Shown: positions 52,871 through 64,000 of the stretch, piece by piece
How the letters are laid out: each line of letters begins with the position of its first letter
Position numbering within the stretch: the stretch's first letter is position 1
Assembly (NCBI GenBank): GCA_002104905.1
Contig: MCFE01000076.1
Location: 118,643 to 182,642 of the forward strand
Source of the DNA: Basidiobolus meristosporus CBS 931.73
Lineage: Eukaryota; Fungi; Basidiobolomycota
Direction of reading: 5' to 3'
DNA: 64,000 nucleotides
The notes under the pieces: model-generated
The model's database searches: none
Seen by the model: the letters and a program-made list of their open reading frames with translations, nothing else
What the model was told of the DNA's origin: nothing
Made by a program: the position numbers and the translations under genes

Positions 52871-54750
<1,880 letters not shown>

Positions 54751-55898: not shown

Positions 55899-56822
55899 AT
55901 GATACTCTGTGATTTCATACAAGTAGTTCTTTGCCTGCTTTGTTTCCGGACGTTGGCCGTTGCTCATATGGAAATGGTTCAGCCACCACCGCGCCATTCA
56001 CGCTATAATCCTACATGGTCAGCAGAGCCGGATTATAATATGGTGAGCCCGTTGAGTGTCTATCCCTGTAAAGGATATGGAAAAGGGGGAGTTGTTCAGA
56101 CCGTAAAAGCAGGCGACTCAGTTCAGGTGCAAATTAGTGGTAGTGCTCCTCATGGTGGAGGGCATTGCCAATTTGCTCTCTCATACGATGAGGGCAAGAC
56201 CTTTGCTGTATTAGAAACAATTTACAGCGATTGTCTTTTTCCGAGCACCAATTATTCCGTGGGTATCCCGGTTTCTGCTGGTTCCAGCAAAAACGCCATC
56301 TTTGCCTGGGCATGGATTAACAAAATCGGTAATCGCGAATATTACATGAACTGCGCGGACTTGGAGATTCAGGGAACCGATAATGGCCATGTTGTAGGAC
56401 CAAAGTTGCTAGTAGCAAACCTTCCAGGATACCCTACCATACCAGAGTTTCTTGGCGACAAGTCCTATGATGGTAGAGATTTGCTAGAAGCTCGCCCAAT
56501 CATCACTATTCGTCCAATGAACGATGTGCCTACATCTAACTTAAATACCACATCAGCATCCACACCTGCGAATACACCGCCCACGTCTAGCACATCGTCA
56601 ATCAGTTTCCCGACCTCGACTACAAGCAAGATAAGCACGACCACAACTTCACCAATATCAAAAAATAGACGTTGCGAAGGCTCCTTAGCATGGAGTGCCA
56701 TAGTTGCATATAGTGGCTCCCGGAAGGTTACTTATGAGGGGCATCTATGGCAAGCCAAATGGTGGAATCAAAATGAGTCACCAAAAGAGAGTGGCGTATG
56801 GATTGACTTAGGCTCTTGCTAG
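55899..56822 (+). CDS. Secreted AA11-type lytic polysaccharide monooxygenase with S/T linker and C-terminal CBM5/12 chitin-binding module
   Basis: Signal peptide ends AVA-H (His at 55965-55967); HMEM..PPPR, APHGGGHCQFALSYD, FAWAWINKIGNREYYMNCAD; C-terminal AW...AY....VTYEGHLWQAKWW. Confidence 0.85.
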   Translation: MILCDFIQVVLCLLCFRTLAVAHMEMVQPPPRHSRYNPTWSAEPDYNMVSPLSVYPCKGYGKGGVVQTVKAGDSVQVQISGSAPHGGGHCQFALSYDEGKTFAVLETIYSDCLFPSTNYSVGIPVSAGSSKNAIFAWAWINKIGNREYYMNCADLEIQGTDNGHVVGPKLLVANLPGYPTIPEFLGDKSYDGRDLLEARPIITIRPMNDVPTSNLNTTSASTPANTPPTSSTSSISFPTSTTSKISTTTTSPISKNRRCEGSLAWSAIVAYSGSRKVTYEGHLWQAKWWNQNESPKESGVWIDLGSC

Positions 56823-57278
56823 GTTTCTTGTTAGTTCATGTTATTTTTTAATAAAGCAAAACCACAATACTTCATTGTTAGTTTAAAGCAAAAATGAGGG
56901 GAATTATACTGCCATGGAGGTGCATATGAGCCAAAGGCACAACATGGAACACTCATTTGTGTTATAAGTTATCCATTTGCACCCAAATATTTGCATTGAA
57001 TGATATATCTTCAGTTTTTCCATCAATTCTTGTAATTTGCACAAATGCTATAGGATTTCTTCTATGCTAAGTGCATTAATCTTGTGCAAGCTGGATGGCA
57101 CAAATTTTTTAAAGCTTAGCTTATTATGCAGAATGCTTCTCTCCATTGAATTTGTATATAATACCAAATTATATGTTTGCTATTGGGCATTATTTTAGTC
57201 TCAAGTAGGCTAATTATTTAACAAAGGGCCTGATCTCTTAGGGTGTAGATTTTATAGTAAGATTTCAAAAAGGTTGGA

Positions 57279-57305
57279 GGGTTAGGGGGGGAGACAGTTA
57301 CCAAC
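57279..57305 (-). mobile_element. 27-nt 5'-truncated stub of the LINE 3' terminus (innermost array unit)
   Basis: GGGTTAGGGGGGGAGACAGTTACCAAC matches the termini at 58272 and 63737. Confidence 0.75.
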
Positions 57306-58265
57306 TTAGGGGAGGGAAAGTCACCAAGGTAGGTGAAATCCTTATTTGATTTCAGACAAGTCTAACTACAAATAAGGAAGCCAGCTGGGAATAGAAGATT
57401 CCCAAAGTAAACACTAAGATGAATATGAATAAATCTAAGCCAAAGTTAAGGCAGTATACCAGAGTACACTGGAGTTCAGGTTCATGGGGGAGTGAAGTAG
57501 ATAAGCTTGAGAGATGTAATAATCTTTTAAGAAGTGGGTAACAGCAGGTGAAGGGGAGTTTTTGATAAGTGAGGTGAATCTTGAGAGCAGAGATTCCTCT
57601 AATGAGAAGGTCTTGTAAACTGGAGAATCAGGAAACTCTTTAAAGGCATGGTCAGTAGGTTCCCAGTAAAACTGGTCAGAGACATTTTGAGAGAATTGTT
57701 TGGCAATACTTTTGTCAAGTACTACCTCCAGAGTGTGATGGTTGATAAATCTTATGTTAACAATCTTGGATAAGTTGTAGCCTTGTTGCTTGAGATACAT
57801 CCTATGCTCAGATATGGGAATAAACTCCACATTTGCAAAGTAGCAGACAGCCCAGTCAGTAGCAGGAGGCAAATCAGAGGTGGCAGGAAGCTTTCTTTTA
57901 GTCTTGGGAGGGGCAGCAGGATGTCTTGAGGAAGCAGGATTAGACTTTTTGACAGCTTCAGAATAGGAAGAGTGAGCAGAAGCAGATGATTCTTGGGGAG
58001 TCTTGTTGGCAGGAAGAGTTGGCATAGGGACAATTGATTCTTGCAGATCAGAGAAGGCAGAAAACAGCTTTTGAACTTGTTTCTTGAGTAGAGCATTTTC
58101 AGCTTCAACAAGTGCAAGCCTTTCCTCAAGGAAAGAAATCTCTAGGGAATGGAGTGAAGGCATAAGAAACAAGAAGAAGAGGGTTGGATAGGGTGGGTGG
58201 GTGGGAAAGTTTGCAGGGAGAAGAGAAGGAAGGAATGAATATTCCAGAAGTCAGAATTTATAGAT
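57306..58265 (-). mobile_element. Non-autonomous Gag-only telomeric retroelement (about 1 kb)
   Basis: Own 5' leader, one ORF homologous to LINE ORF1, 3' UTR ending in the shared terminal module; no RT. Confidence 0.8.
57435..58163 (-). CDS. Gag/ORF1-like protein (coiled coil plus RRM-like domain) of the Gag-only element
   Basis: LPPATDWAVCYFANVEFIPISEHRMYLK...LSKIVNI...LEVVLDKSIA aligns by eye to LINE ORF1 LPPASTWTVVYLKQVPWTPISNIRKALK...LSRIVNL...LEVILDQNIA. Confidence 0.85.
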   Translation of the reverse strand: MPSLHSLEISFLEERLALVEAENALLKKQVQKLFSAFSDLQESIVPMPTLPANKTPQESSASAHSSYSEAVKKSNPASSRHPAAPPKTKRKLPATSDLPPATDWAVCYFANVEFIPISEHRMYLKQQGYNLSKIVNIRFINHHTLEVVLDKSIAKQFSQNVSDQFYWEPTDHAFKEFPDSPVYKTFSLEESLLSRFTSLIKNSPSPAVTHFLKDYYISQAYLLHSPMNLNSSVLWYTALTLA

Positions 58266-58338
58266 GGGCTAGGGTTAGGGGGGGAGACAATTACCAACAG
58301 GTGAAATCTTTATTTCAGTTGAAACAAAGAAGCCAGCA

Positions 58339-61107
58339 CTACTGTTGTAGCTTTGATACAAGAGTGTGTAGCTGAGGGGAACTTGTAGGTAAGTTAATAA
58401 GAAGTGATGATAGTTCTTGAGTGCTCAAGACACTGTTCAGTGGGAAGGGGGGTAGCAAGAGAGGTAAGAATGACTTGTGAACAACATTAATGAGGGGAAT
58501 GTGATAAGGATTGATATTCATCATAAAGGGAGTGTGCTGCTGCAGATATTGCTGCCAAAGGTCTGTCAAGTACTTCAGGTAGGCCAGCTTGGGTTTTTCT
58601 GACTGCAGAATAAATTCTGCAAACTTCTTGACTTCAGGATCTCCAAGTATAGTTCTCCAGCAGGAGCCAGGTGTTGTGTGGTGTGTTCTCTTCCAGGCCT
58701 TAATCAGTGGGTTGTTGCAGTGGTGAAGTCTGAGATATAATCTGGTTCTAAGGTAGAGAAGTCTGATCTTATAGGGCATAAACCCAAAAGCACCAAGAAT
58801 AGCATGTCTGTAGGGGCATTCAGGCAAATGAGGCACCAAGGAGGTAATGCACCATACTGCAAACTTGTCAAGCTTAGTGCAGTCTCTAGAAGTAAGAGAG
58901 AGAAGTGGTAAGCCAAATTCCAGTACAGGGAAGACAAACTGCTTGAGTAGAAGAAGGCAGCTGGGAGCTGAAGTTGTAGGAGGAGTAACAGCCAGTAGCT
59001 TGTGGAGTGCCTGTCTTGCCAGGATAATTCTCTTCTTCAGGTGTGCTCCAGAGTCTAGTCCAGTAGGAAGGAAAGGAAAGCCAAGATATGTAGCAGAAAC
59101 CTGAGCAGGTAGAGTGGAGTTCTCTAAGGTGATGGGAGAGCCCAAAGGTACTGTCTTTGCAATGGAAAGCTGGAGATTATTCTTCTGCAGATACTGGTGG
59201 ATGGTCTGGGAGTCTTGTTGCACATTGGAGGAGGATATTCTGATGTCATCAGCAAAGAGAGTAACCAGGCAGTCAGCTGAGAGTCATGGGAAATCATTCA
59301 GGAAGATGGCAAACAGTATAGGACCAAGCACAGAGCCTTGAACCACTCCATTAGGAACTGAGAACACAGCTGATTGCTCACTTGGGTGCAGAATTCTTGC
59401 TTGTGGATCCAGAAACAGGGACCTGACAAGGAGGGTGAGAGAGGTACTGGAGAAGCATTGCAACTTGGACCAAAGCAGATTTCTGTCAACTGAATCAAAG
59501 GCCTTAGTAATATCAAACAGAACTGAGGGATACTTACACTGGAGAGAGTGATCTTGGCTAAGTATGACTGCATATTCCAAGGAGAGGCCAGGAACAAAGC
59601 CAAACTGTGCAGGATGAAACTTGAGGGAGTCAGAGTAGAGCTCCTGAGCAAGCAGAAGCTCAAACACCTTTCTGCAGGTGGGCAGCAGAGATATTGGCCT
59701 GTAGGAGCTAGGATCCAGGTGCTTTCTGTTACCCTTGTACAGTGGCAGAACATTTGCAATGGACCATTCCTCAGGAGTAGAAAGCTGGGCTGAGCATTGC
59801 TGAAACAGTGGAAGCAGAAGTGCAGACATGGCCTTGGTACTAGTCTTCAGAAGCTCATAGGAGATTGTGTCCACACCTGGAGCAGTAGAGTTGGGAAGCC
59901 TCTTGAGCACATTATGGATTCTCCTTTGATCAAGTGCAAGTGGGATGGGCAGAGTCTTGAAGTCAGGATGAAAGCCAGGAGTTGAGTACTGCTTTGTAGA
60001 GAAGAAGATGTTAGCCAGCTGTTCTGTTGAAGGTAACTTCCTGGAAGAGGGCCTCATTGCCCTGTAGAGTCTTGATACTGTTCTTGTTATAGAGTTGGAA
60101 GATTGCAGAGGCAAGGAACTCATAATATGATCCCAGAGCTGAGTATGCAGAGTGTGGTGAATTGCCTTGGAGTGGTGTATTGCTGTCAGGAGGAGTTTCT
60201 CTGTTTTTGGGTTAGGGAAACTCAGGTAGCTTTGTTGCAGGGCTGAAACAATGGATTCCCATTTTCTTGAGGTAACAGCAGTAGTCTTGCATGGCAGTGA
60301 GAGGGAGGCAGACACCAGAATCAGATGCTTCACAAAGAGCCAGGCATAGTTGAGATCATCTGGCAGAGAAAGTAGCAAACTGGCAAGCTTCAAGTAGTTC
60401 CCAAAGTCTTTCTTCTGATTCTTGGTAGCTTTGTGGGTGAGCACAGTAAGTTTTGGCAGCTTCTTCTTCACAACTGGTTGCATAGAAAGGGACCAGGCTG
60501 GGTGGTCAGAGGCTCTCAAGGATCCTAGCTCAGCTCCAGAGAATTGCTTAACTTCATCCACAAAGTAGAGGGCAGCAGCAGAAGGGCAGATCCAGTCAAC
60601 ACATCTTTTCTCAGATTGAGCACCTAGTGCTAGCAGATGGCTTTCTCTCAGGAAGTTCAGTAGGAATGTAGACCTTGGCTTCATTCTTGCAGTCAGAGTA
60701 GTCTTTTTCTCAGGATGGGGAATGTTGAGATCTCCAAGCAAGATAATAGGTGTTGATATAGATTGCTGGTATTGCTGAACTTTCTGGCATATAACTTGCA
60801 CTTCCTGAAGGGCAAGACTTGGAGGCAGATAGCAGAGCACCAGACTGATAGTTGGCAACTGGAGAGCAGCACAGTAAGGGGAGTAAAGAGGAACACAGAG
60901 CTGAGGAGTATTGATGGTAGAAGAGATGAAGCAGATAGAGGAGGTATTCTTTGTTCTAGGAGTAGAAAAGCAATATAGATTAGTCAAAAGTATAGAGGGT
61001 AGCTGAACATCAATCAAACACAGGAGGGAAAATCTTGAAAGAAGTCTCTCTAGAGTTGGTCTTGATGGCTGTATGCTGTTGCAGTTAAGCAACAGAACTT
61101 CAGGTAG
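58339..61107 (-). CDS. LINE ORF2: APE endonuclease + reverse transcriptase, no AUG before the endonuclease, one internal in-frame TGA at 59284-59286
   Basis: APE: LLNCN, CYLPP, LGDLN, VDWI, SDH; RT: APGVD, YRPISLL, QFGF, FDITKAFDSV, GVVQGSVLGP, FADD (59245-59256), YLGF. Confidence 0.93.
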
Positions 61108-62616
61108 TCAGGCAGAGGTTGTAGCTTCTTCAGAGGCAGCATTAACTATGTGACCTGCAGAGTCCCAGAGCTCTTCAAATGGTGCATCACTTAAGTCAGC
61201 AAGGAGGGAAATGGCATGGTTCTTGAGGAAGTATGCCACATCATAGGAGGGGGCTTGTCTCTTGATGGCAGCAAAGAAAGACAGAATGGCAACATGGGCT
61301 GGAGGCTTGTTGAACAGTAGAGAGTCAGAGGATTCAGATTCTTCAGGCACTATCTTGAAGTCAGTTTTCAGCCAGTTAAGGTTCTTCTCCACAAAGGCAA
61401 CAAATGGGTCAGCAATGTTTTGGTCTAGGATAACCTCCAGAATCTTCCCTTTTCTCCAGGCCAGGTTGACAATTCTTGAGAGCTGAATATTGCATGCCTT
61501 GAGTGCTTTCCTGATGTTGGAAATGGGAGTCCAGGGAACTTGCTTCAAGTACACCACAGTCCAGGTAGAAGCTGGTGGTAGGTTTGCTGGGGGCTTGTAA
61601 GTCCTTCTGTGTGGCAATGGAGCTGCAGTAGTCAGATTGGAGTCCACATTCTCAGTAGAGGGTTTTCTTGATGTGTCTTGCTGAATGGTACTGGAGCTGG
61701 ATGTGTTGATAATTCTTGCTAGAACCTTGCCTGCATAAGTCTGAGGTATAGCTGAGGTGACTGTAGAGGTGGTGGCAGCTGGTGCAGGTGGAGAGGCAGA
61801 AACTGAAGCAGGAACTGAGGTCACCTGGGAGAAGGCAGTAGAAGCAGGTTTTCTGGGAGGAACAGAGTTCACTATCCAGTTGTTCTGTAAAACACTGGAG
61901 TAGCTTTTCTGTGGAACAGGATCTTGCTCTTGAACAGGAACAGAAGCAGCAGGCTGGGGCTGAGCAGTAGTGGTAAGGCAGTGGCACTCCAAGGAAGCTT
62001 TTTGCAAGGCATCTCTGGCAGTTTTCAGGGCAGTATTGGCTTCATTCTTGAGCTTCTTGCATTGGGCATCCAGTCTCTTGTTTTCAATAGCCAGGGCAGT
62101 ATTGGCAGCCTCTAAATCAGCAATTCTCTTCTCAATTGCAAGGAATCTCTGAAGAAATGCATCAGTAGAAGTGCTGGCATCTGGGAGAGCAGTGGCAGGA
62201 ATAGAGTCCATTGACAGTGGGCTTCTTGGAGGCAAGGAAAGTGGACTGGCAGATTCAGGCACAAAAGGAGATATCCTGGCAGGAGGAGAAGGAGTATCCA
62301 AGGCAGTAACAGAGGCAATTCTTGTTGGTGAAGCAGCAGCAGGGGAGGCAAGCCTGTTCAGAAACTGGGCAGGAGAGAGTGCTTGAGGAGAGGGAGTCTT
62401 CAGCTTGCCAAGCATGTCTTCCATCAGAGTGATACCAATATTCCTGGTGCATTTGCAGAGAAAAGTAAGCTTCCTGAGTCTGCCAGCTCTTCCATTCCTT
62501 CTGATAGTTCCTTTGTTTCCACAGTTGGGGCAAGAAATCTTCTTGATAGACTTGTCAAAGCAATCAAGAACCTTCCTTTCAGGTGTAGTGGGCTCCTGTT
62601 GAGGTTTTGGTGGCAT
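61108..62616 (-). CDS. LINE ORF1 (Gag-like): N-terminal CPNC...CKC zinc-ribbon-like motif, Ser/Pro-rich linker, coiled coil, RRM-like domain
   Basis: Uninterrupted ORF from ATG 62616 to TGA 61108-61110 directly upstream of and in frame with ORF2. Confidence 0.88.
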   Translation of the reverse strand: MPPKPQQEPTTPERKVLDCFDKSIKKISCPNCGNKGTIRRNGRAGRLRKLTFLCKCTRNIGITLMEDMLGKLKTPSPQALSPAQFLNRLASPAAASPTRIASVTALDTPSPPARISPFVPESASPLSLPPRSPLSMDSIPATALPDASTSTDAFLQRFLAIEKRIADLEAANTALAIENKRLDAQCKKLKNEANTALKTARDALQKASLECHCLTTTAQPQPAASVPVQEQDPVPQKSYSSVLQNNWIVNSVPPRKPASTAFSQVTSVPASVSASPPAPAATTSTVTSAIPQTYAGKVLARIINTSSSSTIQQDTSRKPSTENVDSNLTTAAPLPHRRTYKPPANLPPASTWTVVYLKQVPWTPISNIRKALKACNIQLSRIVNLAWRKGKILEVILDQNIADPFVAFVEKNLNWLKTDFKIVPEESESSDSLLFNKPPAHVAILSFFAAIKRQAPSYDVAYFLKNHAISLLADLSDAPFEELWDSAGHIVNAASEEATTSA

Positions 62617-62685
62617 ATCCAGAGTTTCAGCTTCAAATTTCAATTTTTGAGATTTTTGGGTGATTTTTGATGGGCGGGATCAAAA

Positions 62686-62699
62686 TTAGGGTTAGGGTT
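62686..62699 (+). repeat. Internal telomeric repeats TTAGGGTTAGGGTT
   Basis: Read directly, 70 nt upstream of LINE ORF1. Confidence 0.95.
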
Positions 62700-62841
62700 G
62701 CGCGCTGTGACTGCTTTTTACGATCGCAAGGTCAGAACCTAGGAAAAAATAAAAATAGTTAGTAAAGGTGATTTAATGGATGGATGGATGGATTCGGAGT
62801 CAGATTCAATCAAAAAATCAAATCGTTGACTAATTTAAAGA

Positions 62842-63371
62842 GGGTTAGGGGGGGAGGAAAGTCACCAAGTGGTGAAATCTTTATTTACTTATGACAAGTA
62901 TCTAAAGAAGCCAAGCTAATCTGATGTTATTCCTAGAAAGCTAGGTCTGAGAGATATATTCCTGGTAAGCCAGGTCTGAGAGTTGAGAAGCTGAGTGGTA
63001 CTATATTTCCTAGTTAGCTAGGTCTGAGAGTGGTTTCCTGGAAAGCCAGGCCTGAGAAGTGAGAATCTGAATATATCTGAGCTAAGTTATACTGGTTTGC
63101 GGTAGCTGAATTGTGGCCGGAATGGCCAGTAGACTGGGGGAGCTGAGATGTATTTCTGGGCAATCACTGGCCAAATTTACTAGGCAAATCTGGCCAAGTA
63201 GCATTTCAAGGATTTCAGCCAATCAGAGCCTTTACTTTGCCCGATGGTTGATCAAGCCATCTCCCAATGAGCACACATCAATTTATTGATCAAATTTTGT
63301 TGGATCCAGGATTTGAACCCACAACCATGGGTATGGAAGGGTTAGGGATAACCACAAGGCTAAGTGTTCTT
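62842..63371 (-). mobile_element. Full-length tRNA-derived SINE (about 530 bp) sharing the array 3' module
   Basis: Pol III A box 63362-63352 and B box 63319-63309 at tRNA spacing; hairpin-rich non-coding body; shared 3' terminus; second copy adjacent. Confidence 0.8.
63309..63362 (-). promoter_or_regulatory. Internal RNA polymerase III type-2 promoter (A box TAGCCTTGTGG, B box GGTTCAAATCC)
   Basis: Near-consensus boxes; T8-to-G53 distance of 44 nt as in tRNA genes; acceptor stem does not pair so not a functional tRNA. Confidence 0.75.
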
Positions 63372-63738
63372 GGTTAGGGGGAGGAAAGTCACCAAGTGGT
63401 GAAATCTTTATTTACTTATGACAAGTATCTAAAGAAGCCAAGTTAATCCGAAGTTATTCCTAGAAAGCTAGGTCTGAGAGATATCTTCCTGGTAAGCCAG
63501 GTCTGAGAGTTGAGAGGCTGAGTGGTACTATATTTCCTAGTTAGCTAGGTCTGAGAGAGGTTTCCTGGAAAGCCAGGCCTGAGAAGTAAGAATCTGAATA
63601 TATCTGAGCTAAGTTATACTGGTTTGCGGTAGCTGAATTATGGCCGGAATGGCCAGTAGACTGGGGGAACTGAGAGGAATTTCTGGGCGATCACTGGCCA
63701 AATTTACTAGGCAAATCTGGCCAATTAGCATTTCAAGG
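63372..63738 (-). mobile_element. 5'-truncated second copy of the SINE
   Basis: Near-identical to 62842-63211, lacks the tRNA-like head. Confidence 0.88.
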
Positions 63739-63830
63739 GTTAGGGGGGGAGACAGTCACCAACAGGTGAAATCTTTATTTCAGTTGAAACAAAGAAGCCA
63801 GCGCTACTGTTGTAGCTTTGATACAAGAGT
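63737..63830 (-). mobile_element. About 90-nt 5'-truncated copy of the LINE 3' end
   Basis: Matches 58272-58365 with three substitutions. Confidence 0.92.
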
Positions 63831-64000
63831 TAGGGTTAGGGTTAGGGTAGGGTTAGGGTTAGGGTTAGGGTTAGGGTTAGGGTTAGGGTTAGGGTTAGGG
63901 TTAGGGTTAGGGTTAGGGTTAGGGTTAGGGTTAGGGTTAGGGTTAGGGTTAGGGTTAGGGTTAGGGTTAGGGTTAGGGTTAGGTTAGGGTTAGGGTTAGG
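63830..64000 (+). repeat. Telomere (TTAGGG)n, G-strand running to the window end
   Basis: About 28 units read directly, with TAGGG and TTAGG variants; orientation expected for a right chromosome end. Confidence 0.99.

Follow-up and report, generated by a model that had tools for sequence, protein, structure and literature searches.

The window analysed here is a 64,000-nucleotide stretch of contig MCFE01000076.1 of Basidiobolus meristosporus CBS 931.73, and close to its telomeric end it contains 5.9 kb of DNA without a single CG dinucleotide (CpG). This CG-free stretch is a subtelomeric stack, lying below TTAGGG repeats, of a single-copy flank, an element with only open reading frame (ORF) 1, and a multi-copy long interspersed nuclear element (LINE) that encodes a putative endonuclease of apurinic/apyrimidinic type (APE) and a reverse transcriptase (RT). 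The evidence supports a CpG-free state that belongs to the LINE family and is held under protein selection, rather than decay of this copy, because none of the 23 family variants listed for 59201-61200 creates a CG, synonymous variants are in excess, and Arg positions bear no scars. We think it probable that the whole family was recoded by long-term, methylation-linked mutation of CG, with selection retaining the copies that work.

Consecutive CGs stand at 56795 and 62675. The 5878 bp between them (56797-62674; 981 C and 1638 G) hold none where base content predicts ~273, and the second-largest CG-free gap of the window is 276 bp. The host part (1-56796) has 2220 CGs, so that within this 64-kb window the observed/expected (o/e) ratio is 0 in this stretch vs 0.77 in the host part. 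The last CG falls 26 bp ahead of the end of the stop codon of a host gene resembling a lytic polysaccharide monooxygenase (LPMO). Across the three element ORFs (502 + 922 + 242 = 1666 codons) Arg is encoded by 65 AGR codons and no CGN codon, and there are neither NCG codons nor codon junctions that join C to G; in 15 long host frames (4966 codons), chosen mechanically, CGN makes up 64% of Arg codons. A preliminary description, read from the letters, had reported the CG-free stretch, the exclusive use of AGR and an edge within about 30 bp of a host stop, and had proposed the o/e comparison; the program counts agree with it throughout and found no overlooked CGs. Two of its statements need amending: the more than 1600 nearly stop-free codons are indeed there, with two in-frame TGA codons (61108-61110 and 59284-59286), and the stretch that it described as elements with ORFs also takes in 481 bp of single-copy, mostly non-coding and equally CG-free flank.

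The depletion is CG-specific: CHG sites are not depleted in the CG-free stretch, where CAG/CTG is not reduced. CA o/e is 1.62 and TA o/e 0.64, so the CpA-to-TpA bias and TA enrichment of ascomycete repeat-induced point mutation (RIP) are not seen. Avoidance of N6-methyladenine sites was considered at an ApT o/e of 0.71 and dropped, as codon-junction ApT (62 vs 73.6 ± 6.3) is not significantly low.

The features, in order along the window, are:

55899-56822, plus strand: host gene, LPMO-like/chitin-binding, with a C-terminal CBM5/12 domain (PF02839, E 3e-7); contains the last CG (56795) and marks the boundary.
56797-57277, no strand: single-copy flank of 481 bp in total, the last host-gene codons plus ~455 bp of non-coding DNA; 0 CG, depth 107, 0 differences.
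57278-58270, minus strand: unit A, a multi-copy ORF1-only element with 0 CG; ATG at 58163 to stop at 57435, 242 aa; 36% identity to the LINE ORF1 over 142 aa (E 4e-20).
58271-58335, minus strand: LINE 3′ tail, two predicted hairpins and, at its end, C-rich sequence complementary to the TTAGGG strand, a motif common to all units.
58339-61107, minus strand: LINE ORF2, with APE-like N-terminus, RT and C-terminal domain; 922 codons, 0 CG (PF00078, E 1.6e-16; PF14529, E 7e-4).
59284-59286, minus strand: nonsense TGA in the RT, private to this copy; 99.8% of the depth differs at 59286, and the family has AGA, not CGA.
61108-61110, minus strand: TGA that terminates ORF1 within a UGA-CUA context and shares the frame of ORF2, a candidate readthrough site; no variant at 8% or more.
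61108-62616, minus strand: LINE ORF1, 502 aa, with N-terminal Cys cluster, coiled coil and conserved C-terminal domain; 0 CG; seven homologues at 35-60%.
62617-62840, minus strand: LINE 5′ leader region with an internal telomere repeat; 7 CGs in 62675-62840 (o/e 1.4); the 5′ end is not fixed, a family contig reaching 62770.
62841-63214, minus strand: short non-coding element B1 with the same 3′ tail; 2 CGs.
63372-63735, minus strand: short non-coding element B2, 96% identical to B1; 4 CGs.
63736-63830, minus strand: 5′-truncated LINE 3′ stub of 95 bp, whose single CG corresponds to CA in the inner LINE; telomere repeats directly cap it.
63831-64000, plus strand: TTAGGG telomere array, which ends the window.

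Family copies were surveyed by aligning four short-read runs of one sample to 59201-61200 and listing all places that differ in at least 8% of the depth (n = 23). The listing is complete for 2 kb of the LINE body, which measures 4.4 kb. For the remainder there are contigs of run X3 and a wider variant table, in which 33 rows were analysed of 40 listed among 288, seven host-gene rows being left out. All family data come from one sample, possibly the same as that of the window; run X5, from another sample, covers the elements only in patches.

None of the 23 family variants creates a CG. Eight are near-fixed differences of this copy from the family majority (0.4%; one stop, four missense, three synonymous), and two of these eight are C:G to T:A, so the 2 kb are not riddled by C-to-T changes in the manner of RIP. 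The 15 segregating variants comprise 12 synonymous and three missense, against 30% synonymous expected (nominal P 9e-5). Synonymous transitions in a CG-forming context number 0 out of 21 vs 20% expected (nominal P ~0.009, and 0.07 for the 12 of 59201-61200 alone). Consensus-like X3 contigs match the LINE body with 0-5 differences each. In the unit A ORF the differences from the family are mostly synonymous and none among the rows listed makes a CG. Three rows among those listed are CG-forming: 58236, in the unit A leader, where the family has CG and this copy TG; 63162, in B1, CG-forming in 6.5% of X1 and 100% of X3, possibly reflecting B2-type contigs; and 59727, rejected as spurious since its neighbour 59728 changes together with it.

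Open frames alone prove little, because CG decay yields a stop only from CGA. Full decay was simulated 2000 times on a version of the protein back-translated with the codon usage of the host, every CG being decayed; the means were 4.3 stops and 113 amino-acid changes, and two or fewer stops occurred in ~19% of runs. The window has two TGA codons and decay sometimes leaves as few, therefore family data are needed, and the argument for recoding that the preliminary description built on open frames is a weak one. Its claim of a CpG-free coding style rather than mere decay holds as a family-level state with protein selection; the evasion of methylation that it offered as one cause goes beyond these data. 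It also passed over the nature of the elements, a LINE system stacked at the telomere whose UGA-CUA junction is invariant. Scars of Arg loss were sought by comparison with three close relatives: at 52 positions where these have Arg, the window reads R in 42, K in 8, S in 2 and H, Q, C or W in none. Two candidate signs of decay were rejected: His-rich stretches as decayed Arg, there being no H at those 52 positions, and the TGA codons as decayed CGA, the RT stop being AGA-to-TGA and the junction TGA invariant.

Shuffling of synonymous codons gives the direction of the change. Codon junctions hold 0 CG vs 91.7 ± 6.5 in the shuffle, 214 TG vs 129 ± 7 and 155 CA vs 120 ± 7; the CG deficit reappears as TG/CA and therefore has the signature of deamination-type mutation. 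The flank (56797-57277) has 0 CG vs ~10 expected, where each of 563 host windows of that size has at least eight and 20 AT-rich ones have 8-17. No similarity of the flank to the element proteins or to the rest of the window was found. It is CG-free with no coding style to evolve, and therefore indicates a regional mutational process. CG differences between paired copies all run from CG in the outer to TG/CA in the inner copy, although at small numbers (three of three). The LINE leader, with 7 CGs in 166 bp, and B1/B2 have retained CGs; the ORFs have none. The X3 contig 62092-62770 reaches into the leader with one difference, which is not at a CG. The part at 62675-62770, matched by a high-copy contig, has 5 CGs within 52 bp together with a GGGCGG box and an internal TTAGGGTTAGGG, and is a candidate internal promoter.

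How mutation and selection could have produced this state may be put as follows. The LINE lineage would have resided over a very long period in chromatin methylated at CG, deamination of 5-methylcytosine (5mC) turning CG into TG/CA, and only copies with working proteins would have kept retrotransposing. Silent CGs (NCG codons and junctions of NNC with G) would have been lost by mutation, essential Arg codons left only as AGA/AGG, and new CGs removed before spreading among copies. The leader CGs may persist if that region is unmethylated or functions as a promoter. Methylation that spreads ~480 bp into the unique flank and halts at the transcribed host gene would give the sharp edge. Machinery of this kind appears in the table of PMC10538959, which has B. 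meristosporus with DNMT1, two Dim2, UHRF1 and HELLS, and without DNMT4 and DNMT5; in the repeats of Phycomyces and Linderina 5mC is described (PMC11258239).

Several observations weigh against this explanation. B1 and B2 share two CGs despite 14 non-CG differences, so loss is neither uniform nor instant. The absence of CG from all 348 synonymous sites that could form one means, if purely mutational, a loss/gain ratio above ~115. Methyl-CpG mutation rates are raised 10-50-fold, and the implied ratio is well beyond this. The flank could be an old repeat no longer recognisable as such, and the variant P values are optimistic in that sites may be linked in subfamilies. A review (PMC13297926) puts the CG depletion of human DNA at about five-fold, which the implied ratio also exceeds by far, and describes 5mC as mostly near-undetectable in early-diverging fungi.

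Selected evasion, in which copies that gain CG are methylated and silenced so that selection for expression, besides mutation, holds coding CG at zero and renders the family effectively methylation-proof, fits the absolute zero, which demands a loss/gain ratio above 100, the fact that no CG-forming variant reaches 8% among copies in 59201-61200, and the keeping of CGs in the leader and short partners and not in the ORFs. We regard it as rather unlikely. The single-copy flank gains nothing by evading, yet is CG-free, and the promoter-side leader, the expected target of silencing, is the part that keeps its CGs; the compensation by TG is a plain mutational signature. Mutation with selection is favoured over evasion because TG makes up for the missing CGs, CG is absent from the unique flank as well, and CGs of untranslated regions (UTRs) have decayed in this copy. 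An enzymatic CG-directed hypermutator, RIP-like but CpG-specific, could instead strip repeats and adjacent DNA at a much higher rate than spontaneous deamination and leave survivors that lack its substrate. RIP can leak into DNA flanking repeats, and the CG loss in the unique flank resembles such leakage; the required ratio above 100 and the loss of UTR CGs in a copy merely ~0.4-5% from its family point the same way. We nevertheless hold such an enzyme to be improbable, given C:G to T:A changes in just two of the eight near-fixed differences and the survival of CGs in B1/B2 and the leader. DNMT4, which is the RID class, and DNMT5 are moreover the two methyltransferases missing from the set tabulated for B. 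meristosporus.

The two remaining explanations concern this copy or its assembly. Simple decay after insertion, with frames still open since CG decay rarely makes stops, can draw on the ~19% of neutral simulations with two or fewer stops and on the nonsense codon in the RT of this copy. It is very improbable as the general explanation: the family majority is itself CG-free over the fully listed 2 kb, neither TGA derives from CGA, and the predicted ~113 amino-acid changes and Arg scars are not seen. Simple decay is refuted for the LINE body at 59201-61200, and it stays the reading for the CGs of the flank and UTRs. We give next to no credence to an assembly or polishing artefact, for which a repetitive telomeric end and runs that may be the source sample could be cited, as short-read contigs reproduce the flank (56001-57333, 0 differences) and the LINE body (0-5 per contig) and the codon pattern is biologically coherent.

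ORF1 and ORF2 share one frame across the UGA-CUA junction, and the first ATG of ORF2 is at codon 142, inside the APE-like domain. The covering contigs of the four runs show no variant at 8% or more at this junction. In five of the six relatives that extend to this alignment column, ORF1 likewise stops there or one residue away (the seventh is truncated), and protein alignment puts the stop at the same place even in relatives with as little as 36% identity. A hairpin is predicted 15 nt downstream (fold z -2.3). UGA-CUA is described as a known type II readthrough context (PMC3159437). The sequence traits of type II readthrough are thus present, namely an in-frame UGA-CUA, conserved among the family copies, and no usable start for ORF2. 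Judged from sequence, ORF2 is likely made by readthrough of UGA-CUA, a candidate case in a fungal LINE.

The RT domain of ORF2 is of LINE type by its PF00078 match and is distantly homologous to that of human LINE-1 (L1) ORF2p (PDB 8sxt, E 1e-13). The PF14529 match of the N-terminus is weak, below the curated cut-off. The motifs GDLN, VDW and SDH, which we take to be APE endonuclease motifs, are present and kept in relatives; the position of the metal-binding Glu reads Asp/Val. ORF2 relatives have 49-96% identity, two B. meristosporus proteins matching at 80% and 96% over parts, and the nearest matches outside Basidiobolus have 26-40%. A metagenome scan gave seven distant RT loci (26-41% identity, CG o/e 0.21-0.75) and was uninformative. 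A search for longer, fused ORF1-ORF2 relatives returned only distant RTs among 7984 scored candidates, which is weak evidence. The element proteins (58339-62616, minus strand) and their close relatives are low in Gly (~2%) and Arg (3.9%), the medians being 4.3% and 5.7% in 144 distant RT matches. Loose ends of X3 and X4 contigs at 60191-60231 mark a related, diverged element that shares only a short stretch, so further subfamilies exist.

From centromere to telomere the order is flank, unit A, LINE, B1, B2, stub and telomere, all units being on the minus strand. The units between 57278 and 63830 have in common a tail that includes a TCACC/GGTGA hairpin and whose C-rich end is complementary to TTAGGG; the predicted fold has z -2.6 at the inner LINE and -3.75 in the distal stub. 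Contig joints show truncated copies abutting the next unit via a few telomere letters. Depth is single-copy over the flank and much higher over the units, climbing toward the LINE 3′ end, with many truncation joints. No long terminal direct repeats occur in the elements and 5′-truncated copies are present, as in non-LTR (long terminal repeat) elements. LINE copies are possibly on the order of 100 or more, by rough depth ratios that do not give a true copy number; reports put Basidiobolus at 60 to many hundreds of chromosomes (PMC3281927). The elements may add themselves to the chromosome end by pairing of the C-rich 3′ tail with the TTAGGG strand.

The LPMO-like gene is the last host gene before the telomeric array. 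Its best named matches are in Basidiobolus ranarum and B. meristosporus, and the LPMO label comes from the preliminary description and a weak AA9 match (E 0.002). Its CBM5/12 module is of bacterial type, and the family is expanded in Basidiobolus. At 53926-54750 (plus strand) lie exons of an AAA ATPase (PF00004, E 5e-24), presumably Vps4-like.

Human L1 has a CG-rich 5′ leader, a CG-poor body that still retains CGs, and a poly(A) end. The Basidiobolus LINE likewise has a CG-rich leader and a CG-poor body; unlike L1, its body is without any CG and it ends in a C-rich tail rather than a poly(A)-type end. Head-to-tail non-LTR arrays in TTAGGG telomeres are described for MoTeR1/MoTeR2 of Magnaporthe oryzae (PMC7367193) and the FoTeRs of Fusarium oxysporum (PMC12857005), which also share with this array a telomere-like 3′ end, a non-autonomous partner with the same 3′ end, and 5′-truncated copies healed by telomere repeats. 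MoTeR1 as described there has a restriction-enzyme-like (REL) endonuclease and one RT ORF, whereas in the Basidiobolus LINE the N-terminus of ORF2 is APE-like and a 502-aa ORF1 is present; Pfam gave no REL-type match for the element proteins. FoTeR decay is reported as CpA-type RIP (PMC12857005), while the Basidiobolus array has lost CG only. The LINE works like MoTeR but is not a member. Drosophila HeT-A/TART, in the account of PMC5009743, offers a likeness of layout, with a telomeric stack, a Gag/ORF1-only partner and a two-ORF RT element; unlike there, Basidiobolus has a canonical TTAGGG array. The non-LTR Group 3 of Paramecium is an APE-RT LINE in which ORF2 continues the frame of ORF1 beyond its stop, in-frame readthrough being only proposed in that account (PMC5405496); the Basidiobolus LINE differs in being fungal and telomeric.

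That transposable elements of Basidiomycetes and of some lower fungi are deficient in CG is already in print (Clutterbuck 2017, Fungal Genet Biol 104:16, as cited in PMC11451569). As in the elements of that account, CG loss here is confined to repeats with a C-to-T signature in CG, and DNMT1-type machinery is tabulated for B. meristosporus. Here, by contrast, the loss is complete (0 in 5.9 kb), it affects elements whose proteins are conserved and which have recently spread to many copies instead of being immobilised, and leader CGs are kept. The CpG-free LINE family is likely an extreme case of this known fungal process, not proven hiding from methylation. We found no literature on the CG content of Basidiobolus repeats, on telomeric LINEs of Basidiobolus or on active fungal retrotransposons that are free of CG, subscription journals being poorly covered. 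A bolder idea, possible although we doubt it, is that a telomere-extending LINE has been fully recoded CG-free, with CG only in its promoter, and so become immune to a CG-based host defence (5mC silencing, or an unrecognised CpG-specific hypermutator in a lineage that lacks RID), an arms-race end point with a readthrough-expressed, telomerase-like RT.

The array separates CG loss as repeat death from CG loss in a thriving family, which are usually confounded. With a multi-copy LINE at zero CG and with selected proteins, it can here be put to a direct test whether transposons escape methylation by recoding. Should the implied loss/gain ratio above 100 be mutational, it would indicate a CG mutator of unusual strength in Zoopagomycota, in which 5mC is described as nearly lacking.

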